NCBI GenBank assembly: GCA_965243135.1
Contig: OZ251539.1
Coordinates: 1,792,001 to 1,856,000, forward strand
Direction of reading: 5' to 3'
DNA from: Alphaproteobacteria bacterium
GTDB taxonomy: Bacteria; Pseudomonadota; Alphaproteobacteria; MPNO01; UBA830
Length of the DNA: 64,000 nucleotides
A program made the translations under genes and the position numbers. Positions 2,149 through 63,894 of this stretch are shown here, piece by piece (the first letter of the stretch is position 1; every line of letters starts with the position of its first letter). Below the pieces are notes generated by a model. That model saw only the letters and a program-made list of their open reading frames with translations, did no database searches and was not told the DNA's origin.

Positions 2149-3657
2149 CTATTCGCAGAGATGGCCCCACTTTTCACGCGATTCCCGAGCCAATTCGGGC
2201 GATGGCGCGTTGACCGGCGGGAACTCGTCCTTCCAGTGGAACGGACGGCAGGCGTCGATGATCGCGCGGCTGTTGGTGAGATTGCCCTTCTCTTTTTCCC
2301 ACGGCGGGATGCGGGGGTCGAGGTGGGTCGACCAGGCGCCGTTGATGATGTCGATCGACGTGGCCGGATCGGAGCGCGTGAGCATCGCCCAGATCAACTC
2401 CTCGAGGTTGGACACGTCGACGTCCTCGTCGGTGACGATTACGTATTTGCCCGCGTAGGCGCCGACATGGCACTGGCAGGCGACATGGCCAGCCTGCTTG
2501 GAATGCCCCGGATAGCGCTGCTTGATCGAAACGCCGATCAACATGCGCGCCGTGCCGACTTCGTGCAGCCAGGCGGCGGTCACGTCCGGCACGCCGGCCT
2601 TCGCGATGTTTTCCTTGAGAAGGGCCGAACGCGTCACCGCGCGGTAACGGGCGAGTTCGTCCGGCGGGCGCTGGGGCGGGCAGCCGAGGATGATCGGGTT
2701 GTTCCGATGATAGATCGCCTTGATCTCCATCACCGGCTCCTCGCGCATCAGCGAACCGTAATACCCGGTCCACTCCCCGAAAGGACCCTCGGGTTTCTTG
2801 TTCGTCGGATGCACGAAACCCTCAAGCACGATCTCGGCGTCGGCGGGAAACGGCAGGCCGGTGTGCCTGCCTTCGATCATCTTCATCGGCTCGCCGCGGA
2901 AACCGCCGACCACGTCGAACTCGCACACGCCCGGCGGCACTTCCGAGCAACCCATCAGGAAGGTCATCGGATCTCCGCCGCACACGATGACCGCCGGCAT
3001 CGGTTCGTTGCGCTGCTGATACTTGTCGCGGTGGACCCGTCCGTGCTTGCCGGGCGAAATGTAGAAGCCGACCTCGTTCTTGCTCTGAACCATCACGCGA
3101 TAGGTGCCGATATTGATCCAGCCCGTGTCGGGGTCGCGAGTGACGTTGTAGGAACCGGTCCCGATGTAGCGTCCGCCATCCTGCTCGTGCCACATCGGCG
3201 TCGGAAAGGCTTCGACGTCGACCGCGTCGCCTTCGATCACGTTTTCCAGCACCGGGCCGCGCTCGACGATCCGATGCGGAATCTGGGCCAGCTCTTCCAT
3301 GTAGTTCTTCCGGAAAGCGTCGGTCAGCTCGATCTTGCTCAACTCCGAGGGAAAGCCGAGCGTCATGTTGGCGCGCTTGCCGGCGAAGAAGTTCACGAGG
3401 ACCCGCGATCCGTCGAGCGTTCCGGGCACGTTTTCGAAGACCACGCAGGGCGCCTTTTCGTCGTGAAGCACGACCTCGGCAGCCATGCCGATGTCGCGCT
3501 CCCAGCTGGCTCCCTCGACGTGCTTTACCTCGCCGAGCTTCTCCGCTTCCTCGAGCCATTCGCGCAGGTCTTCGTACGGAATCCGGAGTTCGTTCGGCGT
3601 CGCGGCTACGGGTCCGGCAGACACCTTGCCGATTGCGTTTCCCATATCGTCGGCCAT
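2149..3657 (-). CDS. UbiD family decarboxylase (paralogue of adjacent gene)
   Basis: DLREWL, DGGRYIGTG, NIGTYR, EGPFGEWTGYY, IIDACRP. Confidence 0.93.
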   Translation of the reverse strand: MADDMGNAIGKVSAGPVAATPNELRIPYEDLREWLEEAEKLGEVKHVEGASWERDIGMAAEVVLHDEKAPCVVFENVPGTLDGSRVLVNFFAGKRANMTLGFPSELSKIELTDAFRKNYMEELAQIPHRIVERGPVLENVIEGDAVDVEAFPTPMWHEQDGGRYIGTGSYNVTRDPDTGWINIGTYRVMVQSKNEVGFYISPGKHGRVHRDKYQQRNEPMPAVIVCGGDPMTFLMGCSEVPPGVCEFDVVGGFRGEPMKMIEGRHTGLPFPADAEIVLEGFVHPTNKKPEGPFGEWTGYYGSLMREEPVMEIKAIYHRNNPIILGCPPQRPPDELARYRAVTRSALLKENIAKAGVPDVTAAWLHEVGTARMLIGVSIKQRYPGHSKQAGHVACQCHVGAYAGKYVIVTDEDVDVSNLEELIWAMLTRSDPATSIDIINGAWSTHLDPRIPPWEKEKGNLTNSRAIIDACRPFHWKDEFPPVNAPSPELARESREKWGHLCE

Positions 3658-7068: not shown

Positions 7069-8697
7069 CTATCCTTCATCGACCACATCCAACCAATCCG
7101 TGAAGATGTGGACCGGCTCGCATATCTCGTGCAGGCCCGTTCGTCCGCGGTTTCCTATTTGGATGCCGTGAAACCGAGTTCCCGCCTCGCGTATCCGCTG
7201 CACATCCGAGATCAAGCCGGGAGGCGCGGGCCATTCGCCATCGCTAACGAACAGCACATCGGCTTTCGACCATTCGCCCTCCCGTAGCCGTTTTAGAACC
7301 TCAGTTATCGCCTCCGTGGGGTCGCTACCGCCACCAAAGGAGAGCGCAAGAAATTTGAGAAATCGGGAGATGCCCTCCAGGGACAGTTCGAGCTCGTGCT
7401 CCTCAATCTGGCTAGGACCACTGAAAGAATAGAGGCGGCAGCTACGTTTCTCTGCGTGCGCCGTGCGGAGCGTTTCCAAAATCAGCGCCTTCGCTACCTG
7501 TTCCGGAAGGCCGTGCATCGAGCCGGACGTGTCGACAACTGCGAGAATGGGTCCCCTGTCCAACCTTGGCTTGCGATTTTCGGAGCGCTCCATTGTCTCG
7601 CACTCTATGGGCACCCGTACGATGTCGACGCCCTCGATCCGGTAGGTCAGCAGGGCCTGTTCCGCCCGGCGCGCGTGCCAGAGCATCTTAAGTTTGGGGT
7701 GGCCGAGCATCGCGGCTTCGACCGGCAACATTCTGGCGATAGACCCGGTCCGCTCGATGCCGCGCGTATCGGCGGGAACCAACGGCAGCGGCGCTTCCCG
7801 TCGCTCTTCCTCCAGCCGCCGCATGGGAATGAACACCCGTTCGGCAACGGATTCCTCCGTTTTGGAAACGTGAAGTCGCCCCAGCGATCTGATGACCTCG
7901 CGAAGGTCAGGCAGCCGCTGGACCAGTTCCCGCAATCTGAGGAGGTCGCGCCATCCGACGTGATGGAGTACGCCGAGCGTGAGATCCCAACCGCGTCCCA
8001 ATACTTGTCCCAAATCGCCGAAGACGTCCGCAATGTCGGCCCATAGGCGCGCTCGTTCCTCCCACTTCTGAAGCACGACCGTGTCAGCGTTCTGTGGACC
8101 GGCAAGAACATCGCGCATGGCTTGGTCGCGCAGGCGTCGGAGAACTTCCCTGTCCAATATGATCTGCTTTCGTCGCTCCCTCATACGATTGGAGCGTTTC
8201 CCCGTTTCCATCTTTTCCTTCAATAGCAAGAGTCGACGTTCCAAATCCTCCCGCTCGCGCAGTTTCTTGCGTTCGATTTCTTCCAACTCGCGTATCCGAT
8301 GAGCAACCTTCATGCGAATCGTTTCATTTTGACTGGAAAACGCTACGAGAATGTCCTTAAGTAGTTCGTCGACCAGCTCTGGGTGATCTTTGCAAAAGTG
8401 AGCTAATCCCATCTGACCCAAGGCCCGGTATACTGGTGCGGAGATCTCTTTCGGAGGCCATAGGTTAACGGGTGGAAGCCGTCCTTTCAGAAGCGCCTCC
8501 CGCCATGCGACTACGCCGCGGACTCGCTCGCGCAGGTCACCGATAGGCATAGTGATAACGTCGTCGAGCAAATGCTCCGGGCATTCATCTAGGACGGCGT
8601 AGCTCCGCTCCAATGCGGCCGCATCGAACCCGCGACTCGCCCGATCTTCAGTATCAGCCAAGCGAGGATCGCGAACTTTCTTCGTCATAATTTTCAT
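7069..8697 (-). CDS. viaA: VWA domain protein, ViaA-like
   Basis: MIDAS VDTSGSMHG.PE.VAKA, FGGGSD, ADVLFVSDGE; directly downstream of a RavA-type ATPase. Confidence 0.8.
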   Translation of the reverse strand: MKIMTKKVRDPRLADTEDRASRGFDAAALERSYAVLDECPEHLLDDVITMPIGDLRERVRGVVAWREALLKGRLPPVNLWPPKEISAPVYRALGQMGLAHFCKDHPELVDELLKDILVAFSSQNETIRMKVAHRIRELEEIERKKLREREDLERRLLLLKEKMETGKRSNRMRERRKQIILDREVLRRLRDQAMRDVLAGPQNADTVVLQKWEERARLWADIADVFGDLGQVLGRGWDLTLGVLHHVGWRDLLRLRELVQRLPDLREVIRSLGRLHVSKTEESVAERVFIPMRRLEEERREAPLPLVPADTRGIERTGSIARMLPVEAAMLGHPKLKMLWHARRAEQALLTYRIEGVDIVRVPIECETMERSENRKPRLDRGPILAVVDTSGSMHGLPEQVAKALILETLRTAHAEKRSCRLYSFSGPSQIEEHELELSLEGISRFLKFLALSFGGGSDPTEAITEVLKRLREGEWSKADVLFVSDGEWPAPPGLISDVQRIREAGTRFHGIQIGNRGRTGLHEICEPVHIFTDWLDVVDEG

Positions 8698-8773
8698 TTC
8701 TCATTATTGGCCCAAAACGCTATCTGGCTTCGGCTTTCGGAGCATCTTCGGTTTAGTTTGGGATTTCTCGGCG

Positions 8774-10288
<1,515 letters not shown>

Positions 10289-18752: not shown

Positions 18753-19541
18753 ATGCATGAAGATCTGACCGTGGAGAAGCTGTTCCGGATGGACGGCGAC
18801 GCCGTTTTCGTCACCGGCGCGGGCAACGGCTTCGGCCGAATAGCCGCCCTGGCGCTCGCCAACGCCGGAGCTTCGGTCGTCGTCACCGACATCGACAAGG
18901 CGGCGGCCGACAACGTAGCGCGCGAGATCGCCGAAAGCGGCGGCCGCGCCGTCGCGCTGGAACTCGACGTGTCGGAGCGGCAGGCCATCCGCGAGGCGGT
19001 CGACGCCGCGGCCAAGACGCTGGGCGGGTTGCACGTGCTGATCAACAATGCGGGAATCGCCCGGCGCGGCCCCACCGAAGAACTGGCGGACGAAGCCTGG
19101 GACGAGATCGTCGAGGTCAATCTCAGCGCGGCGATGGCGGGCTGCCGGGCCGCTGCGCCTCACATGTTCCGGCACGGCGACGGCCGGATCGTAAGCATTT
19201 CCTCGATCATGGGGTTGGTCGGAAACGCCATCTTCCCGCACGCCGGCTACCAGGCCACCAAAGGCGCGCTGGTCAACCTGACGCGTTCGCTCGCCGTCGA
19301 ATGGGCCGGACGGGGCGTCAGGGTCAACGCCATCGCGCCGTCTTTCTTCCGCACCAACTTCGGCGCGGCGTTCATGCAGTCCAACCCGGACGTCGTCGCG
19401 CGAATCGAGGCCTCCACCCCGATGGGACGCTTCGGCGAGCCGTGGGAATTGGCCGGTGCGCTGCTGTTTCTCGCGAGCCGGGCGTCGACGATGGTGACCG
19501 GCGTCACCCTGCCCGTTGACGGCGGCTGGACCTCGGCCTGA
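18753..19541 (+). CDS. Short-chain dehydrogenase/reductase
   Basis: TGAGNGFG, NNAG, YQATKG, VDGGW. Confidence 0.95.
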   Translation: MHEDLTVEKLFRMDGDAVFVTGAGNGFGRIAALALANAGASVVVTDIDKAAADNVAREIAESGGRAVALELDVSERQAIREAVDAAAKTLGGLHVLINNAGIARRGPTEELADEAWDEIVEVNLSAAMAGCRAAAPHMFRHGDGRIVSISSIMGLVGNAIFPHAGYQATKGALVNLTRSLAVEWAGRGVRVNAIAPSFFRTNFGAAFMQSNPDVVARIEASTPMGRFGEPWELAGALLFLASRASTMVTGVTLPVDGGWTSA

Positions 19542-20238
19542 ACGGCTGCCGCGCGGACGCCTGCCGGGATCGGACGACCTGATAGCCCGGCCGCCAGATG
19601 TAGCGGACCGGCGCGCTGAGCATGTGGACGAGCCGCGTGAACGGAAACGCGAGGAAGAGCGTGAGCCCCAGGAACAAATGCAACTTGAATATGGGATGCG
19701 CGTCCTCGATGTAGGACGCGGCCGCCGGGTCGAACGCGAAGATGCCTTGGGCCCAGGCCATGAACGTCAGCATTTCTCCTCCGTCGAGATGCCCCAGCGA
19801 CAACGGAATCGTCGCCAGCCCGAGGACAAGCTGGATCCACAGCAAGACGATGACCGCGTTGTCTCCGAAGCTCGACGTCGCGCGGATGCGGGCGTCGAAC
19901 AGCCGGCGATGAGCCAGCATGGTGGCGCCGGCGAGCGCGAACAGCCCTGCGATTCCGCCCACGACGATCGCCATGACTTGCTTGGCTCCATGGCCGATGC
20001 CCAACGCCTCGAACGCGGCGATCGGCGTCAGCAATCCGACGAGGTGCCCCGCGAAGACGACCAGAACGCCGGCATGGAAGAGAACGGATCCCCACATCAG
20101 CTGCCGCCGCCGCAAGAGTTGGCTAGAGCCCGAGCGCCACGTGTACGGTTCGCGGTCGTAGCGAACGATCGACCCCACGACGAGGACGGTCAGCGCCACG
20201 TAGGGATATATTCCGAAGACGAGGGTATGCGCGCTCAC
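19504..20238 (-). CDS. narI: Respiratory nitrate reductase gamma subunit (cytochrome b)
   Basis: FGIYPY, RYDREPYTWRSGSSQ, LFHAG..GH, KLH, FPFTRLVH. Confidence 0.96.
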   Translation of the reverse strand: MSAHTLVFGIYPYVALTVLVVGSIVRYDREPYTWRSGSSQLLRRRQLMWGSVLFHAGVLVVFAGHLVGLLTPIAAFEALGIGHGAKQVMAIVVGGIAGLFALAGATMLAHRRLFDARIRATSSFGDNAVIVLLWIQLVLGLATIPLSLGHLDGGEMLTFMAWAQGIFAFDPAAASYIEDAHPIFKLHLFLGLTLFLAFPFTRLVHMLSAPVRYIWRPGYQVVRSRQASARQPFRPRSSRRQRAG

Positions 20239-20873
20239 GGCATTGGGTCTCCCGGCGCGGCGGCGGGCCCGAACGTTACCGCCGTTTCCTCCCAGACGCG
20301 GTCGATCGCGGCGAGGTCGCCCGGATCGTCGTCGGGTTCCTGAAGCAAGGCCCTCACTTCGCCGGCGTCGGCCGGCACGTTCGCGAACTCCTCCAACGCC
20401 TCGAACGCGGCGGCGTAAAGACTGTCCCGCCGCCTGAGACGCTCCGCTAGCGCGCCGAGTATGTCGAGCGGCTGGGCGACGAGGTCGCGCGCCTCGGACG
20501 GCGGACGCGTCGCGGCGAATTCGAGGAACAGCGGCAGGTAGTCCGGAAGTTCCCGCGCAGCGACCCGGAAGCCGTTGCGTTCGTACAGCTCCGACAGGTC
20601 GACCATCGCCTGCCCCCGGTCGCGGCTTTCCCCGTGCACGTGCTCGAAGAGATGCAAGGACAAGGATCGCGTTCGGTCGAACAGGTAGACGTAGCGCTCG
20701 CGCGAGTCGTAGAGGTCGCGCGCCGCGATATCGTCGATAAGCGCCGTCACTTTCGCGCGGCATGCCGGCGACAGCAGGGCCTCGCCGTCAAGCGCTTCCG
20801 ACAGGTCGCGAGCGGGAAGCTCCCCGTCCGGATAGGAAAGGAGAATCGAAAGAATCTTGAGGGTTCGAATCAC
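20235..20873 (-). CDS. narJ: Nitrate reductase molybdenum-cofactor assembly chaperone
   Basis: LLSYP, FDRTRSLSLHLFEHVHGESRDRGQAM, ELPDYLPLFLEF. Confidence 0.96.
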   Translation of the reverse strand: MIRTLKILSILLSYPDGELPARDLSEALDGEALLSPACRAKVTALIDDIAARDLYDSRERYVYLFDRTRSLSLHLFEHVHGESRDRGQAMVDLSELYERNGFRVAARELPDYLPLFLEFAATRPPSEARDLVAQPLDILGALAERLRRRDSLYAAAFEALEEFANVPADAGEVRALLQEPDDDPGDLAAIDRVWEETAVTFGPAAAPGDPMP

Positions 20874-22384
20874 CGCTCCGCAGCCTTCTTGCGTCCCGCG
20901 CCGCCGAAAAGATTGCCTCCTCCGGAGCCGCCGGAACAGCCGTTGCCGAACGAGAAGCCGCAGGATCCGCGCAGATCGTAAGCGTCCTCGACCTCTTCCC
21001 TGTGCGACGTAGGAATGACGAAGCGATCCTCGTAGTTGGCGATCGCCATCAGCTTGTACATTTCCTCGATCTGGCCGGAAGAGAGGCCTACGCGCTCCAG
21101 GACCCTTTCGTTCGGCGACCCTTCGACGGTGACGCTTCTCATGTAGATGCGCATCGCGAACAGGCGCTCGAGCGCGCCCGCGATCGGCTCTTCCTTGCCG
21201 GCGGCGAGCAGATTGGCGAGGTAACGGACGGGTATCCGGAGCGAGCGCACGTCCGGGATGTCGTCGTCGAAGCCGATCATCCCGTTCTCGGCCGCGGACT
21301 GGATCGGCGACAGCGGCGGCACGTACCAGACCATGGGAAGGGTCCGGTATTCCGGATGGAGCGGAAACGCGACCTTCCAGTCGACGGCCATCTTGTAGAC
21401 GGGCGAATTCCGCGCCGCCTCCAGCCATCCGTCCGGAATTCCGTCCCGGCGGGCCTGCCGGATCACCCCGTCGTCGTTGGGGTCGAGAAAGATCCCGAGC
21501 TGCTCCTCGTAAAGATCCTGTTCGTTTTCCGTCGCGGCCGCGGCCTCGATCCGGTCCGCGTCGTAGAGCATCACGCCGAGATAGCGGATCCTTCCGACGC
21601 AGGTCTCCGAGCAGACCGTCGGCTGCCCGGCCTCGATGCGCGGGTAGCAAAGCGTGCATTTTTCCGACTTTCCGGACGACCAGTTGAAGTAGATCTTCTT
21701 GTACGGGCAACCGGACACGCACATCCGCCAGCCGCGGCATTTCTCCTGATCGATCAGGACGATCCCGTCCTCCTCGCGCTTGTAGATCGCCCCCGACGGA
21801 CAGACGGCCGCGCAGCTCGGGTTGAGGCAGTGTTCGCACAGGCGCGGGAGATACATCATGAACGTGTTCTCGAACTGCCCGTAGATTTCCTTCTCGATTC
21901 CCTCGAAATTCTCGTCCTTCGAGCGCTTCTCGAATTCTCCTCCGAGAATCTCCTCCCAGTTGGGCCCGGCCTCGATCTTCTCCATGCGCTCGCCGGTGAT
22001 CCGGGAGCGCGGCCGCGCGGTCGGCGTCGCCTTCATCTCCGGCGCCGACTGCAAATGGTCGTAATCGAAATCGAACGGCTCGTAGTAGTCGTCGATTTCC
22101 GGCAGGTCGGGATTGGCGAAGATCTTCGCCAGAATTTTCCATTTGGCGCCCATGGTGGGCTGAAGCTTGCCGTTCTTCTTGCGCACCCATCCGCCGTTCC
22201 ACCGATCCTGGTTCTCCCACTCGTTCGGATAGCCGGTTCCGGGCTTGCTCTCGACGTTGTTGAACCACGCGTATTCCATGCCGTCGCGATTCGTCCACAC
22301 GTTCTTGCAGGTGACGGAGCACGTATGGCAGCCGATGCACTTGTCGAGATTGAGGACCTTGCCGATCTGGGCGCGAATCTTCAT
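20870..22384 (-). CDS. narH: Respiratory nitrate reductase beta subunit
   Basis: MKIRAQIGKVLNLDKCIGCHTCSVTCK, PRLCEHCLNP.C, CRGWRMCVSGCP. Confidence 0.98.
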   Translation of the reverse strand: MKIRAQIGKVLNLDKCIGCHTCSVTCKNVWTNRDGMEYAWFNNVESKPGTGYPNEWENQDRWNGGWVRKKNGKLQPTMGAKWKILAKIFANPDLPEIDDYYEPFDFDYDHLQSAPEMKATPTARPRSRITGERMEKIEAGPNWEEILGGEFEKRSKDENFEGIEKEIYGQFENTFMMYLPRLCEHCLNPSCAAVCPSGAIYKREEDGIVLIDQEKCRGWRMCVSGCPYKKIYFNWSSGKSEKCTLCYPRIEAGQPTVCSETCVGRIRYLGVMLYDADRIEAAAATENEQDLYEEQLGIFLDPNDDGVIRQARRDGIPDGWLEAARNSPVYKMAVDWKVAFPLHPEYRTLPMVWYVPPLSPIQSAAENGMIGFDDDIPDVRSLRIPVRYLANLLAAGKEEPIAGALERLFAMRIYMRSVTVEGSPNERVLERVGLSSGQIEEMYKLMAIANYEDRFVIPTSHREEVEDAYDLRGSCGFSFGNGCSGGSGGGNLFGGAGRKKAAER

Positions 22385-25300
22385 GGCGTTTTCTCCCCTG
22401 CCGCCGTTTCTCCGGCGGGTTCGTCGAGCCAGTCTATCCGGCCCATCTTGCGAACGACGACGAATTCGTCCCGGTTCGAGCCGACCGTTCCGTAATAGTT
22501 GAAGCCGTACGATTGCTGCGCGTAACCGCCGATCATGTGCGTCGGCTTGACCACGGCGCGCGTCACCGAGTTGTGTATTCCGCCGCGACGGCCCGTCGTT
22601 TCCGAACCGGGCGTGTTCACCACTTTCTCCTGGGCATGGTACATGAAGAGCGTGCCTTCCCTGATCCGCTGCGAGACGACGGCGCGCGCGGTCAGGGCGC
22701 CGTTGCGGTTGTACGCCTCGACCCAGTCGTTGTCCCGGATGCCCGCCTTCGCGGCGTCGATCTCGGAGATCCACACGACCGGGCCGCCCCGGTTGAGCGT
22801 CAGCATCAGGAGGTTGTCGGTATAGGTGGAATGGATCCCCCATTTTTGGTGGGGAGTGATGAAGTTGAGGACGATCTGCGGGTTGCCGTCCGCTTTCTCG
22901 TCGATCAGGGATCCGATGCTCTTCGTTTCGATCGGCGGCCGGTACACGCAAAAACCCTCGCCGAAGGCGCGCATCCACAGGTGATCCTGATAGAGCTGCT
23001 GGCGCCCGGTAAGCGTGCGCCACGGAATCAGTTCGTGGACGTTCGTATAGCCCGCGTTGTAGCAGACGGCCTCCGATTCGAGGCCGGACCACGTCGGCGA
23101 GGAAATGATCTTGCGGGGCTGGGCGACGATGTCGGCGAAACGAATCTTTTCGTCCTCCTTCGATTCCGCCAGATGGGCGTGCCGCCTTCCCGTCGCCTTC
23201 GACAGCGCATCCCAGGCGCGAACCGCGACTTCGCCGTTGGTCTCCGGCGCCAGCATCAGAATCGTTTCGGCCGCGTCGACGTCGCTTTCGATGCGCGGCA
23301 ATCCGGCGGTCGGCCCGTCCCCGCTCGCAACGCCGTTCAGCGCCCTCAAACGCTCGATCTCGGGATCGGTATTCCAGGCGATCCCCTTGCCTCCGTTGCC
23401 CAGCCGGGACATCAGCGGCCCCAGCGCCGTGAAGCGGGCGTAAACGTTCGGGTAGTCCCGTTCGACCACGGCGACCGCGGGCATGGTCTTTCCGGGCGCC
23501 GGATCGACCTCGCCCTTCTTCCACTCCCGCACCTCGAACGCCTGGGCGAGCTCGAGCGGCGTGTCGTGAAGGATCGGCGCAAGGACGACGTCCTTCTCCA
23601 CGCCGAGGACTTCGGGCGCCACTTCGGAAAACGTTCGCGCCAGCCCCTTGAAGATCTCCCAGTCGCTACGGCATTCCCAGACGGGATCGACCGCCGCGGT
23701 CAGCGGATGGATGAACGGATGCATGTCCGAAGTGTTGAGGTCGTTCTTCTCGTACCAGGTCGCCGTGGGCAGCACGATGTCCGAATAGACGCAGGTCGTG
23801 GACATGCGGAAGTCGATCGTCACGAGCAGGTCGAGCTTGCCCTGCGGCGCCTCCTCGCGCCAGACGACCTCCCGCGGCTTGCGGTCCCCGGTCTCTCCGA
23901 GATCCCGGTTCATGACGCCGTGGTCGGCGCCGAGCAGGTGCTTGAGGAAGTATTCGTGGCCCTTGCCGGACGAGCCCAGGAGGTTGGAGCGCCACACGAA
24001 GAGGTTGCGCGGCCAATTGGCGGGATTGTCGGGATCTTCGCACGACATCCTTAGTTCGCCGGCCTTCAGCGCCGCCGCGACGTGCTCGGAGGGATCGGCC
24101 CCGGCTTCTTCCGCCCGCCTGGCGACGTCCAGCGGGTTGGTTTCGAGCTGCGGCGCCGAAGGCAGCCATCCCATGCGCTCCGAACGGACATTGTAGTCGA
24201 CGAGCGCGCCGTCCCACGACCCGTCCGGCGCAGTCGGGGACAGCAGTTCGTCGACGCCGAGCGTTTCGTAGCGCCACTGGTCGGTGTGAGCGTAGAAGAA
24301 CGAGGTGGAGTTCATGTGCCGGGGGGGTCTGCTCCAGTCGAGCGCGAAGGCGAGAGGCAGCCAGCCGGTCTGCGGCCGGAGCTTCTCCTGACCGACGTAG
24401 TGGCACCAGCCGCCGCCCGACTGACCCACGCAGCCGCACATCACCAGGAGATTGATGATCCCCCGGTAGTTCATGTCCATGTGGTACCAATGGTTGAGTC
24501 CGGCGCCGAGGATGACCATCGAGCGCCCGCCCGTCTTTTCGGCGTTGGCCGCGAACTCGCGCGCCACGGCCGCGATGCGTCCGGCGGGAACGCCCGTGAT
24601 CCTCTCCGCCCAGGCCGGCGTGTAGGGCGCGTCGTCGTCGTAGGAAACGCCGACGCCGTAATTCGCGACGAGGAGATCGAACACCGTCGCCGCGAGCGCC
24701 TCGCCGTTCCCGAGCGCCACCCGCTTCGCGGGCACGCGCCTTTCGAGGACGTCCGGATGATCGGTGCCTTCGAAGTGATCGTGGGACCGGTTGCCGAAAT
24801 AAGGGAAGCCTACCGCGACGTCCGGCTCCCCGGCCAGCGACAGGGCGAGATCGACCGTTCGCCCTTCGGCGTCGCGGGTTTCGAGATTCCAGCCGCCCTG
24901 CCCTTCCCATCGGAACCCCGCCGCCCCGGCGGGCGCGACGAAGCCGCCCGACGCGCGATCGAACGCCACGGTCTTCCACTCGGCGTTGCCTTGCCGGCCC
25001 AGTTCTCCGTCGAAGTCCGACGCGCGGAGGAAACGATCCGGAACGTAACGGCCGTCCCGCTCCGTCAGCAGGACCAGCATCGGCATGTCGGTGAAGCGCC
25101 GGGCGTAATCGGCGAAGTACTCGACCTGCCGGTCGATATGGAACTCGCGCAGGACAACGTGCCCCATGGCGAGGGCGAGGGCCGCGTCGGTGCCCTGCTT
25201 CGGATGGAGCCACAGGTCGGCGAATTTGGCCGCCTCGGAGTAATCGGGGCAGATCACCACGGACTTGGCGCCCCGATAGCGCGCTTCGGTATAGAAGTGC

Positions 25301-26088
25301 GCGTCGGGCGTCCGCGTCTGCGGCACGTTGGAACCCCAGAGAATCAGGAAGCCCGAATTGTACCAGTCGGCCGATTCGGGCACGTCGGTCTGCTCGCCCC
25401 ACGTCATGGGCGACGCCGGGGGCAGGTCGCAATACCAGTCGTAGAACGACATGCACACGCCGCCGAGAAGCGAAAGGTACCGGGAACCGGCGGCGTAAGA
25501 CACCATCGACATGGCGGGGATGGGAGAGAAACCGACGATCCGGTCGGGACCATGCGTCCGGATCGTATAGGCGTTGGCGGCCGCGACGATTTCGTTCGCC
25601 TCGTCCCATTCCGCGCGGACGAAGCCGCCGAGCCCGCGTTTCCGCGTATAGGACGCGCGCCGGTCCGGATCCTCGACGATGGAGGCCCAGGCGGCGACCG
25701 GCGGAAGATTTTCGCGCGCCGCGCGCCACAACCTGAGCAGCGGCGTGCGGATCAGCGGATGCTTCACCCGGTTGGCGGAGTACATGTACCAGCTGTAGCT
25801 CGCGCCGCGGCTGCAGCCGCGGGGCTCGTGATTCGGCAGTTCGGGACGGGTCCGGGGATAATCCGTCTGCTGGGTTTCCCAGGTGACGATCCCGCCCTTG
25901 ACGTAGATCTTCCACGAGCAAGCGCCCGTGCAGTTCGCTCCGTGGGTCGAACGCACGACCTTGTCGTGTTGCCAGCGTTTGCGATAGCCGTCTTCCCAGC
26001 GCCGGTCCTCTTCGGTGACGACGCCATGCCCGTCCGAGAACGAATCGCGCGGCGACAGGAAATTCAAGCGGTCAAGCAGATGGCTCAC
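22381..26088 (-). CDS. narG: Respiratory nitrate reductase alpha subunit
   Basis: STHGANCTGACSW, EPRGC.RG, SFYDWYCDLP, HYVGQEK, TPHQKWGIH, YGTVGSNRD. Confidence 0.98.
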   Translation of the reverse strand: MSHLLDRLNFLSPRDSFSDGHGVVTEEDRRWEDGYRKRWQHDKVVRSTHGANCTGACSWKIYVKGGIVTWETQQTDYPRTRPELPNHEPRGCSRGASYSWYMYSANRVKHPLIRTPLLRLWRAARENLPPVAAWASIVEDPDRRASYTRKRGLGGFVRAEWDEANEIVAAANAYTIRTHGPDRIVGFSPIPAMSMVSYAAGSRYLSLLGGVCMSFYDWYCDLPPASPMTWGEQTDVPESADWYNSGFLILWGSNVPQTRTPDAHFYTEARYRGAKSVVICPDYSEAAKFADLWLHPKQGTDAALALAMGHVVLREFHIDRQVEYFADYARRFTDMPMLVLLTERDGRYVPDRFLRASDFDGELGRQGNAEWKTVAFDRASGGFVAPAGAAGFRWEGQGGWNLETRDAEGRTVDLALSLAGEPDVAVGFPYFGNRSHDHFEGTDHPDVLERRVPAKRVALGNGEALAATVFDLLVANYGVGVSYDDDAPYTPAWAERITGVPAGRIAAVAREFAANAEKTGGRSMVILGAGLNHWYHMDMNYRGIINLLVMCGCVGQSGGGWCHYVGQEKLRPQTGWLPLAFALDWSRPPRHMNSTSFFYAHTDQWRYETLGVDELLSPTAPDGSWDGALVDYNVRSERMGWLPSAPQLETNPLDVARRAEEAGADPSEHVAAALKAGELRMSCEDPDNPANWPRNLFVWRSNLLGSSGKGHEYFLKHLLGADHGVMNRDLGETGDRKPREVVWREEAPQGKLDLLVTIDFRMSTTCVYSDIVLPTATWYEKNDLNTSDMHPFIHPLTAAVDPVWECRSDWEIFKGLARTFSEVAPEVLGVEKDVVLAPILHDTPLELAQAFEVREWKKGEVDPAPGKTMPAVAVVERDYPNVYARFTALGPLMSRLGNGGKGIAWNTDPEIERLRALNGVASGDGPTAGLPRIESDVDAAETILMLAPETNGEVAVRAWDALSKATGRRHAHLAESKEDEKIRFADIVAQPRKIISSPTWSGLESEAVCYNAGYTNVHELIPWRTLTGRQQLYQDHLWMRAFGEGFCVYRPPIETKSIGSLIDEKADGNPQIVLNFITPHQKWGIHSTYTDNLLMLTLNRGGPVVWISEIDAAKAGIRDNDWVEAYNRNGALTARAVVSQRIREGTLFMYHAQEKVVNTPGSETTGRRGGIHNSVTRAVVKPTHMIGGYAQQSYGFNYYGTVGSNRDEFVVVRKMGRIDWLDEPAGETAAGEKTP

Positions 26089-32479: not shown

Positions 32480-33214
32480 ATGAGCGAAGCAGGAAAAGAA
32501 TACCGGTTCGTAATCGAAGCATATAGTCCCGAAACCATGCCAATGTTGCGGCTAGCCGAATACATGACCGATCTGGCGCGAATATTCGGCGAGAACGAAT
32601 ATGTGCATTTCGTGCGTCTGGAGCGCGGCAGCACCGTTCTGGTACAGGCCGTCGATCCCGATGTCGAGCCCAAAATGCGAGGCAGGCTCCGCGCCATTGC
32701 GAGCGGGGAGCCTCCCGAAGACGCGGCCAGGGCGTTCGGATCGCTGAACGGACGTCTGGCTGCAGACGGTGCGACCGGCAGCCTGCAGGACGGCGACGGC
32801 GCGGAGGTCATCCGGTTTCCCGGTCGCGAACGATCACGGAACGTGAACTATGGGCCGCACAATCAATCGGACACGCTCGATGGCACTCTGATCCGCATAG
32901 GCAGTCGAGACGACACCGTGCCTGTACACCTGAAGGATGACGACACAATCCACATGTGCAATGCGACCCGTTCCATGGCTAAAGATCTGGCACCTTATCT
33001 TTACGGTCCGGTTTTACGAGTACACGGAGATGCACGCTGGGAAAGAAATAGCGATGGCCAATGGTTATTGGAGCGTTTCAATATCAAAAAATTCGAAGAA
33101 CTGGAAGATGTACCGGTTAGCGAAGTCGTAGATCGATTGCGCCGTATCGAAGGAAGCAATTGGAAAAACATTGAAGATCCTGCAGGCGAGATCCAGAGAT
33201 TGCGTAGCTCTTAA
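32480..33214 (+). CDS. Hypothetical protein, accessory type
   Basis: GGAGG RBS, 244-aa ORF (YRFVIEAYSPETMPMLRLAEYMTDLA..VHF..LERGST), lower GC than flanks. Confidence 0.75.
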   Translation: MSEAGKEYRFVIEAYSPETMPMLRLAEYMTDLARIFGENEYVHFVRLERGSTVLVQAVDPDVEPKMRGRLRAIASGEPPEDAARAFGSLNGRLAADGATGSLQDGDGAEVIRFPGRERSRNVNYGPHNQSDTLDGTLIRIGSRDDTVPVHLKDDDTIHMCNATRSMAKDLAPYLYGPVLRVHGDARWERNSDGQWLLERFNIKKFEELEDVPVSEVVDRLRRIEGSNWKNIEDPAGEIQRLRSS

Positions 33215-33851
33215 TGCCAGTTATTGGTAGTGCAGTACCATAACTCTTACTTATTGTTACAGATTTTCAAAATAAAAACTCGAATTTGTTCGAACTGCCG
33301 CATTTTTCATAATCTTCAGTCATTTCTTCAAGAAATTTTTTACGCTCAACGCAAAATTTTCTCCTTGATGGCAGCATCATGGGACATGTGCGGCGACAAT
33401 TCCGTCAAGACTTCGACAAGGCACGCTTGCCGGGAAACAGCACAGCTCTGTCGTAGACACCGGCTGGCGGCCTCGTTATTGGCGAGCGGATTTTTTGATG
33501 GTATAAACCGTTCGCTTCATGTGCGAATGACTGGTCGCTGGGGAGTGACCGCGTGAGGTATCAGCTGGGGTCGTTGCGGTTCTGCGCGATGACCGTCCTG
33601 CTTTCCGCAGATTAGAGGTTTGGAAAGTGCCGCCGCCGCCAGAATCAGAACCTATTCCCGAGTCGGGGCATACGGTCAAAACGGCAGCATGTCCCCCGCG
33701 CCCTAGCCGGTTGCCGTCCGATTACTCGTGCCGTATCGCCCGCCTGGAGTCGCTCCCCGGTAACGCGTCCGGTTCGGACAAGACCTGGGTTCACCGGGCC
33801 CATGCCGAGGCTGTCCGGCATCTGAAATCGGCAATACGGCGTTGACCCGTT

Positions 33852-34367
33852 GTGGATCCGTTCGTCTCGCTCGTCCACGCCCTTTCGGCCGACAAGGTTC
33901 GTTTTCTAATCATCGGCGTGTGGGGAGCTAACTACTACGCGCCGACAGGCAGCGCGATGTTCACCACCCTCGATCGCGACCTCTTCATGCCGGCGGAGCC
34001 CGAAAGTTTGCTTGCCGCGTGGCGCGCATGCGAAGCGAACGGATTTGCGCTGTTCGCCGGCTCGGAGCCGCTCGACCTTCCACGCGATGACGCTCTCGCC
34101 AGCGCCGTGGTGGCGCGGCGCGCGCTCACTCGGGCATCCGATAACGCCGGCACCGATGTGGACCTTTCCTTGGTTATGGGCGATTTTGAATTCGAAACGG
34201 TCTGGAAAGAGCGCAGAATTTTCAAGGTCGACGGAGTTTCCATGCCGGTCGCCAGACTCGCTCACATCGTCCGATCAAAGGCGACGGCTAACCGCGAAAA
34301 GGATCGTCTCTTCCTCGCGACGCACCGGGAGGCGCTTCGACATCTTTTATCAGAAGATGCAATGTAG
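33852..34367 (+). CDS. Minimal nucleotidyltransferase-like protein
   Basis: FLIIGVWGA..TLDRDL, VDL, L..IVRSK...NREKD pattern typical of MNT/DUF6036-like proteins. Confidence 0.7.
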   Translation: MDPFVSLVHALSADKVRFLIIGVWGANYYAPTGSAMFTTLDRDLFMPAEPESLLAAWRACEANGFALFAGSEPLDLPRDDALASAVVARRALTRASDNAGTDVDLSLVMGDFEFETVWKERRIFKVDGVSMPVARLAHIVRSKATANREKDRLFLATHREALRHLLSEDAM

Positions 34368-36263: not shown

Positions 36264-37505
36264 TTATCGATCCCACAACTCGCTCAGCGGCACGGCCAGC
36301 AGGCGCTCGTCGCGCATCGGCAGAACATCCCTTCCGTCGTAGAGCAGAATGCCTTGCTCGAAATCCGCGCCACACCGCTCCGCAAGTCGGGCGAGGCCCT
36401 GCCCGTCCTTCGAAGTCAGAGTGGCGCTGGCCTTGACTTCGATACCCCAAGTCCGCTCGCCCCGGGTCAAGACCACATCGACCTCTACCTGATCCTTGTC
36501 ACGATAATGCCACAACCGTACGTCGGGGTCGGTCCATGCGGCTTGGGCGGCGAGTTGCTGAACCACCCAAGCTTCCAACAGATGCCCCATGCGGTTCCGA
36601 TTATGAAGCCAGTCCTCGGCTTTCAAATCGGCAAGGACTGCCGCAACGCCGCTATCGATCAGGTACGCTTTCGGCGAACTGACGAGACGTTTGGCCGGAT
36701 TACGACGCCAAGCGGGCAGACGCCGCACCAGATACAGCCGTTCGAGCACGCCCAGATAGCGCTCCACCGTTTCCCTGCGCAACCCGAGGTCGCCGGCGGC
36801 ACGGCTTGCGTTAAAGATTTCACCATTCCGCAGAGCGAGGAGTTCCAACAGGCGAAGCAGTTCACGAGCATCTCTCACGCGGGCCACATCGCGCACGTCT
36901 CTTTCAATTATGCTTTGCAGATATTGCCGATGCCATTGCCTTGCACGGACGGGGCTTCGGGTGAGCGCCACGGGATAGCCGCCAGCCACCATGCGTTGCG
37001 CCAGCGTCGACCCGGCAGGCGAATCGCGGTTTCCGATACCCGGCTGGAAATCGCCTTTCAACAAGGCGCTTACGAACCCGCCGGCCCGCCCCTCTTTTTC
37101 GGCTTCCGTCAGAGGATGCAATTGCGTGATTTCCATGCGGCCCGCGAGAGATTCAGTCACACTGGGCAGAAGCAGCAAATTAGCCGAACCGGTGAGCAGG
37201 AAACGACCGGACTTGCGGTTCTGGTCGACCGCGAGCTTGATGGCTGGAAACAGGGTCGGAACCCGTTGTATCTCATCGAGAATCACGGCACCCGGCAGGT
37301 TGGCGACGAACCCGTTGGGATCCGACGAAGCGGTCCGGTAGTAGTTGTCCTCGTCCAGGCTGATGAAGGCGTGATCTGGCGCAATCTGCCGAACGAGCGT
37401 AGTTTTCCCGCATTGCCGCGGACCGAGAACGCAGACTACAGGCGTATCCGCCAGTGCTTCATGAATTACGGGCGTCAACAAACGGGGAAAAAAATTCGAA
37501 ATCAT
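36264..37505 (-). CDS. AAA+ ATPase with wHTH and C-terminal DUF4143 PD-(D/E)XK nuclease-fold domain
   Basis: GPRQCGKT, ILDEIQ, LTGS, ESLAGR, GGYP, HTH-like FNASRAAGDLGLRRETVERYL, EVDVV..GIEVK. Confidence 0.9.
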   Translation of the reverse strand: MISNFFPRLLTPVIHEALADTPVVCVLGPRQCGKTTLVRQIAPDHAFISLDEDNYYRTASSDPNGFVANLPGAVILDEIQRVPTLFPAIKLAVDQNRKSGRFLLTGSANLLLLPSVTESLAGRMEITQLHPLTEAEKEGRAGGFVSALLKGDFQPGIGNRDSPAGSTLAQRMVAGGYPVALTRSPVRARQWHRQYLQSIIERDVRDVARVRDARELLRLLELLALRNGEIFNASRAAGDLGLRRETVERYLGVLERLYLVRRLPAWRRNPAKRLVSSPKAYLIDSGVAAVLADLKAEDWLHNRNRMGHLLEAWVVQQLAAQAAWTDPDVRLWHYRDKDQVEVDVVLTRGERTWGIEVKASATLTSKDGQGLARLAERCGADFEQGILLYDGRDVLPMRDERLLAVPLSELWDR

Positions 37506-38490
37506 TTGCCTATTGCCCTAGCGTCCGTCTGCTTTCTTAGTCAGCGTTCATTTGCGGTTTACTATATCGTCCAATTGCCGCTTGACGTGGCGTCAAGTTG
37601 CCTATTGCCCTAGCGTTCGCCTGCTTTCTGCTCCAGCGTCTGTCTGCCGTTTATCATACCGTCTGATCATTGTCTGGTATCTCGTCCATTTGCCTACCGT
37701 CCCAGCGTCCATCCGCTTTCCTGATCAGTGTCCGTTTGCAGTTTACTATATTGTCCACTTGCTGTCTGATATGGCGTCAAGTTGCCTATTGCCATAGCGT
37801 CGACCTGCTTTCTTCTCCAGCGTCTATCTGCCGTTTATCATACCGTCTGATCATTGTCTGGTATAGCGTCCATTTGCCTATCGTTTCAGCGTCCATCCGC
37901 TTTCCTGATCAGCGTCTAATTGCGGGTTATTATACCGTCTAACTGCTGTCTGATATGGCGTCAAGTTGCCTATTGCCATAGCGTCGACCTGCTTTCTTCT
38001 TCAGCGTCTATCTGCCGTTTATCATACCGTCTGATCATTGTCTGGTATAGCGTCCATTTGCCTATCGTTTCAGCGTCCATCCGCTTTCCTGATCAGCGTC
38101 TAATTGCGGTTTGTTATAATGTCTAATTGCTGTCTGATATAGCGTCTATTTGCCTATTGCCATAGCGTTCTCCTGCTTTTTGCTCCAGCGTCTGTCTGGC
38201 GTTTATCATACCGTCTGATCATTGTCTGGTATCGCGTCCATTTGCCTACCGTCCCAGCGTCCATCCGCTTTCCCGATCAGTGTCCGTTTGCGGTTTTCTA
38301 TATTGTCCAGTTGCCGCTTGATATCGCGTCCATTTGCCTATCGTCTTAGCGTCCATCCGCTTTCCTGACCAGCATCTAATTGCTGTCTGATATGGCGTCT
38401 ATTTGCCTATTGCCATAGCGTTCGCCTGCTTTTTGCTCCAGCGTCTGCTTGCCGTTTATTGTAGATTGCTGGCTGGCATAGCGTCTGTTC
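37498..38490. repeat. Tandem array of 23-bp monomers with 4-mer (92 bp) and 8-mer (184 bp) higher-order repeats
   Basis: 41 contiguous 23-bp monomers from 37521 to 38463 with no indels, consensus approximately GCGTC-n4-TGC-n10-A, e.g. GCGTCAAGTTGCCTATTGCCATA at 37774 and 37958; partial monomers at both ends. Confidence 0.95.
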
Positions 38491-38653
38491 AGCAAAAAAC
38501 TGGCATTGGTGCTGATTTCCTGTACAGAAACGATACGTTACCTATTGTTTTGAAAACCGACCTGCCTATCGCAGGTTCAAGACTTTCCTGCGGCAATCGC
38601 GGGCAGCAAGGCACTCGTTCACGGCATTCCCGGAAAAGCTGACGCGCGCCGCG

Positions 38654-39052
38654 CTACTCGGTGTCCGGGACCATCGCTGTCGTCTCGATCTCCACTCTGG
38701 CGCGATCCTCCATCAGCGCGACGACCTGGACCGCCGCCATTGCCGGGAAAACGAGGCCCATCACCTCGCGATAAGCTGTTCCGACTTCCCGCAGATTCGC
38801 CAGATATTCACGCTTGTCGACGAAATACATCGTCATGCGGCAAACGTGCTCCGGCGCCGCGCCGCCTTCGCGCAACACCGCCACCGTGTTGATCATCGCT
38901 TGACGGAACTGCGGAACGAATTCGTCGCTCTCGAACTTCTCCTCGGCGTTCCAACCGACCATTCCGGCGACGAACACCATTCGACCCTCGGCCGCGATCC
39001 CGTTCGAATACCCTTTCGGCCTGGACCAGCCAGGGGGATTGAGAACCCGCAT
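38654..39052 (-). CDS. RidA family protein (type found in abm clusters)
   Basis: PPGW.RPKGYSNG, FVAGMVG, FPAM..V.V.AL, VEIETTA. Confidence 0.9.
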   Translation of the reverse strand: MRVLNPPGWSRPKGYSNGIAAEGRMVFVAGMVGWNAEEKFESDEFVPQFRQAMINTVAVLREGGAAPEHVCRMTMYFVDKREYLANLREVGTAYREVMGLVFPAMAAVQVVALMEDRARVEIETTAMVPDTE

Positions 39053-62342: not shown

Positions 62343-62429
62343 GCGGTCGTGGCGGAATTGGTAGACGCGCAGCGTTGAGGTCGCTGTGGGAGAAATCCCG
62401 TGGAAGTTCGAGTCTTCTCGACCGCACCA
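62343..62429 (+). tRNA. tRNA-Leu (anticodon GAG)
   Basis: Acceptor stem GCGGTCG/CGACCGC-A-CCA, D-arm GGCGGAATTGGTAGACGC, anticodon arm CAGCG-TTGAGGT-CGCTG, long variable arm, GTTCGAG T-loop. Confidence 0.97.
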
Positions 62430-62502
62430 TTCATGCTCCAGGCCCGCAGACGCGGGCCTGGTTTCGTATGCGACGAACGTCCGAGTACGGAGAGACGGCT
62501 TC

Positions 62503-63894
62503 ATGGCGAACGCCGCGGCGAACCCCGACCGGGACGTGCAGGCCGTGCAGGCGGAGGACCTGCTTGACCTCGACCCCGACGTCATCCGCGACGTCATCGT
62601 AAGGCTGGACGACGGCCAGGCGATCGAAAGAATTATCGCCCCTCTGCATCCCGCTCAGACCGCCGATCTCATCGAAGTCCTGCGCGGACATCTGCGCACG
62701 CAACTGATCGATCGACTGCGGGATGGTTTCGATCCTCTCGTCCTTGCCGAACTCGACGAAACCGTGCGCGACGAAGTCGCGGAACGGCTCGGCATCGAAG
62801 CGATCGCGAAAGCGATCGCCGCCCTCGATTCCGACGACGCCCTGAACCTCATCGTCACTCTTGAAGAGACCAAGCAGAGACGCGTTCTGCACGCGATTCC
62901 GTCGGCCTTGCGGGCCATGCTGGAACAAGGCATCGCCTTCCCGGAGGACAGCGCCGGGCGCCTGATGCAGCGGGAACTCGTCGCCGCGCCCGCATTCTGG
63001 ACGGTCGGCGAAGTGATCGACTTTCTCCGCGAAAGCGACGGCCTGCCCGACGACTTCTACGATATTTTCGTCGTCGATCCCCGGCATCGCCTGATCGGAG
63101 CGATCCCCCTGAACAGGGTCCTGCGCGCCAAGCGCCCCGTTCCGGTTCGGGACATCATGATTCCGGATCTCGTGACCATTCCCCTCGGCATGGACCAGGA
63201 AGAGGTCGCGTACGTTTTCGCGCAGCAGGATCTGGTTTCCGCGCCGGTCATCGACGACACGGGTCGCCTGATAGGCGTGATCACGGTCGACGATATCGTC
63301 GACGTCATTCACGAGGAGGCCGAAGAGGACCTCATGCGGCTCGGCGGCGTCCAGGAGGACGATCTCTACCACGCGGTCATCGATACCGGCAAGTCGCGAT
63401 TCGCCTGGCTGTTCGTGAATCTCGCAACGGCCATCGTCGCTTCGATCGTGATCGGCCTGTTCCAGGGCACGATCGAACAGATCGTGATGCTCGCGGTGCT
63501 GATGCCCATAGCGGCCTCGATGGGAGGCAATGCGGGAACCCAGACCCTGACCGTCGCGGTGCGCGCGCTCGCCATGCGCGAGCTCTCCCCGGCCAATGCG
63601 CTTCGGGTGCTGTCGAAGGAGGTTCTGGTCGGAGTTTTCAACGGGCTTCTTTTCGCCGCGATCGTCGGGACGATCGCGTGGGTATGGTCAGGCAGCGTCG
63701 GAATCGGGATCGTCATGGCCGTGGCGATGGCGATCACCATGGTCATCGCAGGTCTAGCCGGCGCGGCGATTCCGCTCGGATTGTCCCGGACCCGTTTCGA
63801 TCCGGCGATCGCGTCCGGGGTGTTTCTTACGACCGTAACCGACGTCGTGGCGTTTTTGGCGTTTCTCGGCTTGGGCGCATGGCTCCTGCTGTAG
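62503..63894 (+). CDS. mgtE: Magnesium transporter
   Basis: LHPA..AD, FPEDSAG.LM, CBS pair, MPI.ASMGGNAGTQ, DPAIASG.FLTT.TD. Confidence 0.96.
   Translation: MANAAANPDRDVQAVQAEDLLDLDPDVIRDVIVRLDDGQAIERIIAPLHPAQTADLIEVLRGHLRTQLIDRLRDGFDPLVLAELDETVRDEVAERLGIEAIAKAIAALDSDDALNLIVTLEETKQRRVLHAIPSALRAMLEQGIAFPEDSAGRLMQRELVAAPAFWTVGEVIDFLRESDGLPDDFYDIFVVDPRHRLIGAIPLNRVLRAKRPVPVRDIMIPDLVTIPLGMDQEEVAYVFAQQDLVSAPVIDDTGRLIGVITVDDIVDVIHEEAEEDLMRLGGVQEDDLYHAVIDTGKSRFAWLFVNLATAIVASIVIGLFQGTIEQIVMLAVLMPIAASMGGNAGTQTLTVAVRALAMRELSPANALRVLSKEVLVGVFNGLLFAAIVGTIAWVWSGSVGIGIVMAVAMAITMVIAGLAGAAIPLGLSRTRFDPAIASGVFLTTVTDVVAFLAFLGLGAWLLL

Follow-up and report, generated by a model that had tools for sequence, protein, structure and literature searches.

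The 23-bp repeat array and the adjacent ATPase gene

We analysed a 64,000-nucleotide stretch of DNA (the window; positions 1,792,001 to 1,856,000 of contig OZ251539.1, assembly GCA_965243135.1) from an Alphaproteobacteria bacterium, in which an array of 23-bp direct repeats separates a RidA-like gene (38654-39052, minus strand) from a gene for an ATPase on the same strand (Table 1). The first array monomer includes the ATG of this ATPase gene, with GGCAAATG at 37512-37503 on the minus strand and the start codon in the register of the repeat core, and the array is therefore to be read on the minus strand. The array had been described in an earlier reading of the same sequence (the original prediction), and its anatomy was compared with that description.

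Table 1 Features of the repeat array and of the adjacent gene, in window coordinates.
Feature	Position	Strand	Description or basis
ATPase gene, AAA_14 + DUF4143, 413 amino acids, PADLOC PDC-S01	36264..37505	minus	Pfam, PADLOC
Array of 23-bp direct repeats, 42 monomers	37498..38463	minus (gene strand)	variable hexamer, then core of form nnnnnGCAnnnnGACGC
Gene-proximal monomer with the ATPase ATG (37505-37503)	37498..37520	minus	hexamer TAGGGC where homologs have a -10-like TAnnnT
92-bp unit (4 monomers) absent from a diverged strain	37506..37597	minus	contig joining 37505 to 37598
Four complete 184-bp higher-order units, with two variants of the 92-bp four-monomer block per unit	37590..38325	minus	identity matrix; Tandem Repeats Finder (TRF)
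Distal shortened units, with C/D-fusion monomer at 38372-38394 (exactly 23 bp removed)	38326..38463	minus	

Read in a 23-nt register, the segment from 37521 to 38463 divides into 41 consecutive in-phase monomers with zero insertions or deletions (indels), as the original prediction had stated; we found that a 42nd, partly diverged monomer lies next to the gene (37498-37520) and that a degenerate extra monomer follows at 38464. Conservation over the 41 monomers was highest at T4 (41/41), G3 (40/41), C5 (37/41) and G11 (37/41), followed by C2 (36/41), C12 (36/41) and A23 (34/41). The motif GACGC (GCGTC on the plus strand) is retained in nearly all monomers, its positions being conserved in 31-41 of 41 and those of GC in 36-37 of 41.

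Self-identity was 0.52 at all multiples of 23 (z = 17.8 at lag 23) and reached 0.655 and 0.797 at lags 92 and 184 (z = 30.2 and 31.0, respectively), compared to 0.28 in 100 shuffles, with z over all lags of 12-31. TRF reported periods of 23, 46, 92 and 184, the row for period 184 having 4.7 copies, 87% matches and 0% indels, so that both checks bear out the predicted periodicity of 23, 92 and 184 bp. Monomers are thus more alike at the unit periods of 184 and 92 bp than neighbouring monomers are, which is the pattern of an alpha-satellite type of array. The 92-bp units are of two alternating types, with identities of 83-99% within a type and 60-78% across types, and the central units at 37774 and 37958 are 99% identical, again as predicted. 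At 38372 a C-type head is fused to a D-type tail within one monomer, as already recognised in the original prediction; the net loss is exactly 23 bp, which leaves the phase intact.

The segment 37498-38490 contains 143 A, 279 C, 204 G and 367 T, which corresponds to a GC content of 48.6% and a pyrimidine content of 65% on the plus strand, against a GC content of 0.62-0.69 in the flanks; the pyrimidine skew and AT-richness that had been claimed are therefore real. The array is also non-coding, as proposed, with no open reading frame (ORF) of at least 40 amino acids inside it on the gene strand and only short ORFs on the plus strand. Its monomers are contiguous and lack the unique spacers that define CRISPR arrays, which agrees with the earlier exclusion of this class.

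We also examined whether the array is present in contigs from other sequencing runs, of which 12 were listed, none of them of RNA. An assembly artefact, which the original prediction had named as a reason to discard its claim, might be suspected since no contig spans the array in the four runs X1, X4, X6 and X8. However, contigs from runs of four studies enter the array from both flanks, which indicates that it is not peculiar to one assembly, and internal array unitigs are present, those of X4 and X8 with strain-specific substitutions, so an artefact is extremely improbable. A 10,407-nt contig of X8, from another study and a strain diverged by about 2%, joins 37505 to 37598 and skips 92 nucleotides; the shorter side of the junction has 80 letters and 19 letters fit both sides. 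This contig represents a strain without exactly one 92-bp unit next to the gene, i.e. a copy-number polymorphism, and change by whole units is ongoing in the array.

The product of the ATPase gene matches Pfam families AAA_14 (residues 22-136, E = 5.6e-26) and DUF4143 (residues 201-360, E = 1.6e-46), and over its full length (residues 1-412, E = 5e-154) the PADLOC family PDC-S01, a candidate single-gene defence family. The Walker A and B motifs and a C-terminal D343...E356-x-K358 are invariant or nearly so in the alignment; the latter we take, following PMC3424549, to be a PD-(D/E)XK motif. A fold model built from an alignment of 43 sequences (predicted local distance difference test, pLDDT, 86.4; predicted template modelling score, pTM, 0.86) consists, in this order, of an AAA+ domain, a segment of three helices with a beta hairpin (approximately residues 213-282; H213-225, H233-240, H244-256, E260-263 and E279-282) and an alpha/beta domain. 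The best Foldseek matches of the model were the archaeal AAA+ ATPases SSO1545 and PAB2304, followed by RuvB, Orc1/Cdc6 on origin DNA and STAND NTPases. A sequence search of the PDB with the ATPase gave nothing at E ≤ 0.01, and its matches in NCBIfam were at noise level only. According to PMC12988326, PDC-S01 (AAA_14-DUF4143) is the fourth commonest defence candidate across prokaryotes, has no known function and comprises an ATPase fused to a PD-(D/E)XK domain.

The same repeat upstream of homologous genes

A scan of one genome per species identified 304 relatives of the ATPase, and the best 80 of these (57-72% amino acid identity) were used for the analysis of repeats. These 80 loci originate from metagenome-assembled genomes labelled Latescibacterota, Vicinamibacterales, Gemmatimonadota, Binatia, Gammaproteobacteria, Spirochaetia, Verrucomicrobiota and others. 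Using a position weight matrix (PWM) from 225 repeat units and exact 23-bp spacing to call phased blocks, we found a phased 23-bp block ending at the gene start in 68 of the 80 loci, with the shared core GCAAnnnGACGC on the gene strand. The number of repeats per locus was 2 (7 loci), 3 (19), 4 (24), 5 (12), 6 (3), 7 (1), 8 (1) and 14 (1), the mode being four repeats or 92 bp. Elsewhere in the 676 kb of homolog loci only four phased arrays were found.

The homolog core ..CCGGCAAtyrGACGC.. matches that of the window monomers read on the minus strand. Of the four monomer classes that alternate in the array, A and C match the family core fully, and B and D match it only at GCA/GACG. The window locus shares with the subfamily an exact 23-bp period on the gene strand, an array that ends at the gene start and a last repeat which carries the start codon, and differs from it in copy number, with 42 monomers against the usual 2-8, most often 4 and never above 14 in the 80 loci. 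Two other loci, L020 (13.5 copies by TRF) and L050 (7.9 copies), hold independent homogeneous expansions. More than 8 copies, by TRF or PWM counts, were seen in only 3 of 81 members: the window, L020 and L050. The array is, we are confident, an expansion of the repeat block that the family carries upstream of its gene.

Of the 6392 ordered pairs of loci, only 187 had DNA homology reaching beyond position -150 upstream, and only 228 had homology that continued for more than 20 bp after the stop codon. Homology thus stops at the edges of the module, and the conserved unit comprises the repeats and the gene. This, together with the patchy spread of the module over many phyla at 57-72% identity, the lack of synteny of the flanks within the genus and the presence of repeats on both sides of the gene in loci L022 and L025, is what might be expected if the ATPase-nuclease mobilised the module as a cassette, with the repeats as its ends or as recombination sites. 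However, the repeats are normally one-sided and no transposase or integrase family (Pfam) adjoins the array among the 20 neighbouring ORFs. In locus L046 five extra copies (3174-3288) stand ahead of a truncated ATPase copy, which suggests the decay of tandem gene duplicates rather than the movement of a cassette, and we regard a mobile cassette as highly improbable. An empty site is not definable for the array, whose two flanking genes are non-adjacent in four same-genus genomes.

The array itself is a single chromosomal copy at 1.83 Mb on the 6.1-Mb single-contig genome. A whole-genome search with a 368-bp array unit returned the array alone, phased PWM matches across the 6.1 Mb were found in the array only, and no match to the unit was present among the 40 relatives searched.

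Other tandem repeats were detected in the flanks of the homologs by TRF, with periods of 87, 180 and 267 at L063:6746-7476 and 4.2 copies of an 87-bp unit at L067:8582-8943. Repeats of 18 bp which are GC-rich lie at the contig ends of L081 (2-315) and L085 (2-354).

Putative promoter geometry and the candidate binding protein

We compared the position of the start codon and of promoter-like hexamers between the repeats of the homolog loci. Sixty-one of the 80 loci have an in-frame start codon within the core of their last repeat: ATG, in the same register, in 58 and TTG in 3. The -10-like hexamer TAnnnT stands ahead of the last repeat in 48 of 61 cases, compared to 3/56, 3/51 and 0/36 for the successively earlier repeats and a background of 0.37%. 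The -35-like TTGnnn or (C)TTTAC stands ahead of the penultimate repeat in 32 of 56 cases; its frequency is 1/61, 3/51 and 3/36 at the other repeats, and 1.3% in the background. The -35 and -10 boxes therefore occupy the same register of successive repeats, giving a period of 6 + 17 = 23 bp. The original prediction had read 23 bp as two helical turns; judged from the hexamer register, the length is better explained by promoter geometry, and paralogs with 22-bp repeats (see below) would have a spacer of 16 bp.

The -10 box ends 9 nt 5' of the ATG, and between them lies aaccggcaa with no Shine-Dalgarno tract, from which we infer a leaderless or near-leaderless mRNA. The cores lie upstream of the -35 box, in the spacer and over the start, which would be the layout of a repressor operator. 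A typical module would then consist of 2-8 phased 23-bp direct repeats and the gene, each repeat pairing a conserved core with a variable hexamer. The last two hexamers would act as promoter boxes, the penultimate one as -35 and the final one as -10, and the start codon would come from the last core. The upstream repeat block probably has such a promoter or operator function.

Hexamers resembling a -10 box (TATGAT, TATAAT, TATAGT and TACAAT) are also found in several monomers of the window array, oriented toward the ATPase gene. Read-through of the repeats downstream of them is possible, and the array could in this way be transcribed as a repetitive regulatory RNA or long leader acting as a sponge or scaffold, which was one of the two readings offered by the original prediction. 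However, one 184-nt unit was no more stably folded than shuffled sequence in either orientation (z = +0.64 and +1.53), Rfam 15 gave 0 matches at the gathering score and none at E ≤ 1, GGA is not enriched on the minus strand (33 against 28.5 ± 4.4), and the upstream repeats of canonical members lie 5' of the predicted start. A transcribed repeat is accordingly unsupported and very unlikely. A sponge for CsrA/RsmA was also considered and rejected, as GGA, AGGA and ANGGA on the minus strand were not above composition-matched shuffles.

The other reading of the original prediction, a phased protein-binding scaffold, is the better of the two, though its link to the adjacent minus-strand ATPase gene and ATG had been missed. 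The DUF4143 family is strongly expanded in this genome, with 22 matches to PF13635, 21 of them above the curated cut-off (approximately 20 paralogs; examples at C1:3903401, 803012, 1120585, 3827156, 4540160 and 5389344), compared to 3-9 matches in genomes of the same genus and none in most other relatives searched. Distant paralogs in this genome and in relatives bear different elements abutting the ATG, which are either 22-23-bp direct repeats or large palindromes. The repeat type comprises L096 (G000:C1:1120585, plus strand; 22-bp unit), L094 (3827156, minus strand), L118, L120, L125, L127 and L134, several of which have a core resembling CAAT[TC][AG]G.CG. In L086, L090, L092, L116, L123, L126, L129, L130 and L133 a palindrome of 30-50 bp stands just 5' of the ATG instead. 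There seem to be two operator styles within the DUF4143 family, and the fact that paralogs have their own distinct elements argues for a paralog-specific binder. Within a locus, variable core positions also agree beyond shuffling (0.83 against 0.44 at column 7; 0.85 against 0.74 at column 15).

Because the module travels alone across phyla, the paralogs differ and the core positions agree within a locus, the most economical binder is the ATPase's own product, and we put at roughly even the chances that the 23-bp repeats are operator sites for this AAA+/winged-helix-like protein. It would bind head-to-tail on the direct repeats via the winged-helix-like region which follows its AAA+ domain. Taking these elements together, we favour, with some reservation, the interpretation that the array arose by hyper-expansion of the promoter/operator block which belongs to the adjacent ATPase-nuclease gene of the AAA_14/DUF4143 (PDC-S01) type.

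It should be noted that a number of observations weigh against this interpretation. No phased array was found in 12 of the 80 homolog loci, and by the criteria used here 19 of the 80 have no in-frame start within a repeat. Some loci (for example L017, L024, L026 and L029) keep only the ATG-bearing repeat, with good -35 and -10 boxes, so upstream copies are dispensable there. In the window itself the boxes are poor (TGACTA at the -35 position, TAGGGC at the -10 position) and fall outside the subfamily pattern, which could mean weak expression of this copy or the use of a different start; a strict sigma-70 consensus scan of 37300-38700 on both strands found 0 sites (1.5 ± 1.3 in shuffles). The fold matches to DNA-bound Orc1/Cdc6 have low template modelling (TM) scores of 0.26-0.29, gene conversion alone can yield agreement of core positions within a locus, and the figure of 42 monomers rests on the assembly. 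Phased cores also occur apart from the ATPase start: three copies directly follow the ATPase stop codon in L022 (5254-5322) and L025 (5252-5320), a pair precedes an unrelated gene at L009:8984-9029, and of the viral records with phased cores none (0/5) has a DUF4143 match. Lastly, the single PDC-S01 representative that was tested gave E. coli B no protection against T4, T5 or T7, according to bioRxiv 10.1101/2024.09.26.614923.

The viral records come from IMG/VR contigs, in which there were 10 exact matches to two phased cores, as pairs or triplets at 23-bp spacing. These matches (L106/L109, L112/L113, L111 and L110/L114/L115) lie beside promoter-like sequence and unrelated genes, including a glutaredoxin gene and ORFs without a family, and may be unrelated operators; match L107 was set aside as an apparent chance occurrence in coding sequence and L108 as low complexity. 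Phased cores without an ATPase (L009, L022, L025 and the viral contigs) mean that the binder could be something else, such as a host regulator, RNA polymerase or sigma factor, or that the repeats are mere promoter architecture. However, the module occurs in many phyla with differing neighbours and with homology that stops at its edges, the ATPase is the only factor which travels with it, and paralogs within one genome have different repeats. We therefore consider another binder unlikely, and return to the ATPase product as the candidate.

A replication-origin iteron array or a partition centromere of the sopC/parC kind was considered as well, given that phased direct repeats lie here in an AT-richer gap and that the adjacent protein, with its AAA+ and winged-helix-like regions, resembles Orc1/Cdc6. 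Against this, the array occurs at just one place, on the chromosome; Pfam scans of the 20 neighbouring ORFs gave no Rep, Par or DnaA family; the cumulative GC skew continues to fall through 36-40 kb with no turn at the array; and the short arrays of homologs sit on the promoter and ATG. An origin or centromere is, on this evidence, scarcely probable. The neighbouring genes are catabolic by their Pfam matches (FAD monooxygenase, short-chain dehydrogenase, enoyl-CoA hydratase and acyl-CoA ligase).

Some further features of the window may be recorded here. Two more patches of low GC, 8001-10000 (0.47-0.52) and 33001-34000 (0.53), stand out against approximately 0.65; the former adjoins a VWA/CoxE-like gene (7069-8697, minus strand), and several ORFs there have no Pfam match. 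Respiratory nitrate reductase genes occupy 19504-26088 on the minus strand, with an alpha subunit of 1235 amino acids and a gamma-subunit domain fused into a 419-amino-acid ORF. The sole RNA gene found in the window is a tRNA-Leu (GAG) at 62343-62429 on the plus strand, which overlaps a listed ORF at 62386-63894.

Proposed origin of the expansion and comparison with known systems

The simplest account of the four monomer classes would be that they go back to an ancestral block of four diverged repeats (92 bp, the commonest size in the family), which was amplified as a block. On this view unequal exchange would have amplified the block about tenfold to 42 monomers, first in units of 92 bp and later in units of 184 bp. 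Some 38 binding sites would thereby be added beside the gene, acting in titration or as a scaffold, or the extra copies may be selectively neutral.

In the neutral case the canonical 2-5 repeats would be functional and the growth to 42 copies a side effect of slippage or unequal crossing-over that adds no function; this is possible but the less probable course. Array size varies by whole units between strains, more than 8 copies are rare in the family, the promoter boxes of the window are weak and the units are young, with 83-99% identity within a type. On the other hand, the 23-bp phase is free of indels over 966 bp and the sole deletion seen, at 38372, is of exactly one monomer, and the family-critical GACGC and GC are retained in all monomer classes; it should be noted that young age could also explain both of these observations.

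A bolder proposal would be that PDC-S01-type proteins polymerise head-to-tail on their own 22-23-bp repeats, so that the block is both an autoregulatory operator and a platform of self-DNA on which the nuclease is 'parked' and kept inactive until triggered. The 42-site array would then be a naturally amplified platform which evolves through unequal exchange as a small satellite does, with its length tuning the amount of free protein. We offer this as speculation, and think it rather doubtful.

Direct-repeat operators and iterons are already well known. The 23-bp unit that combines a -35 box, a -10 box and a start codon, its conservation across phyla and its higher-order expansion appear to be new as far as the literature was searched. 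In the literature on DUF4143, PDC-S01, COG1373 and AAA_14 with direct repeats that the search covered, which excluded most subscription journals, no description of the upstream element was found, and the papers listed by a search on bacterial higher-order repeats were all eukaryotic or methods papers. The conserved cis-element offers a handle on the control of PDC-S01 genes and on the DNA which the protein may recognise.

For the protein, the known counterpart is the PADLOC candidate family PDC-S01, with which it shares a full-length match (E = 5e-154) and the same domain order. The upstream repeat element goes unmentioned in those portions of the PDC-S01 literature that were examined, and a defence role is that of a candidate only. 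Archaeal Orc1/Cdc6 (PDB 2qby, 2v1u) is similar in having an AAA+ domain followed by a winged-helix-like region and a gene beside repeated boxes. However, the TM scores are low, and here there is an extra nuclease domain and a set of strictly phased promoter repeats, with no origin features seen.

Among plasmid systems, Rep-iteron systems and P1 RepA are autoregulated initiators with iteron or operator arrays. The likeness lies in phased direct repeats of about 20 bp beside the gene of the presumed binder and over its promoter, and in the capacity of extra arrays to titrate. The differences are that no replication function is indicated here, that the protein is an AAA+/winged-helix-like/PD-(D/E)XK protein and not a Rep, and that the -35 and -10 boxes are in the variable part of the repeat and the start codon in the core. 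The F-plasmid sopC is a centromere array of 12 units of 43 bp, and R1 parC is likewise a centromere array. They resemble the window array as long, indel-free tandem arrays of protein-binding units (putative here) in a bacterium, but here no partition genes are nearby, the location is chromosomal and the monomers have diverged into a higher-order pattern.

The original prediction had also likened the array to eukaryotic alpha-satellite, which is centromeric and has a monomer of about 171 bp. This likeness holds for the mode of evolution, by unequal exchange, and for nothing beyond it: the window array has a 23-bp monomer and a length of about 1 kb, is not centromeric and has classes that derive from promoter repeats. 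In both cases amplification acts on units of several diverged monomers, homogenisation is greatest in the central units and length changes by whole units. The array is thus an unusually clean bacterial case of higher-order-repeat evolution, in which the origin, a promoter block of four repeats, is understood and unit-wise polymorphism is ongoing.

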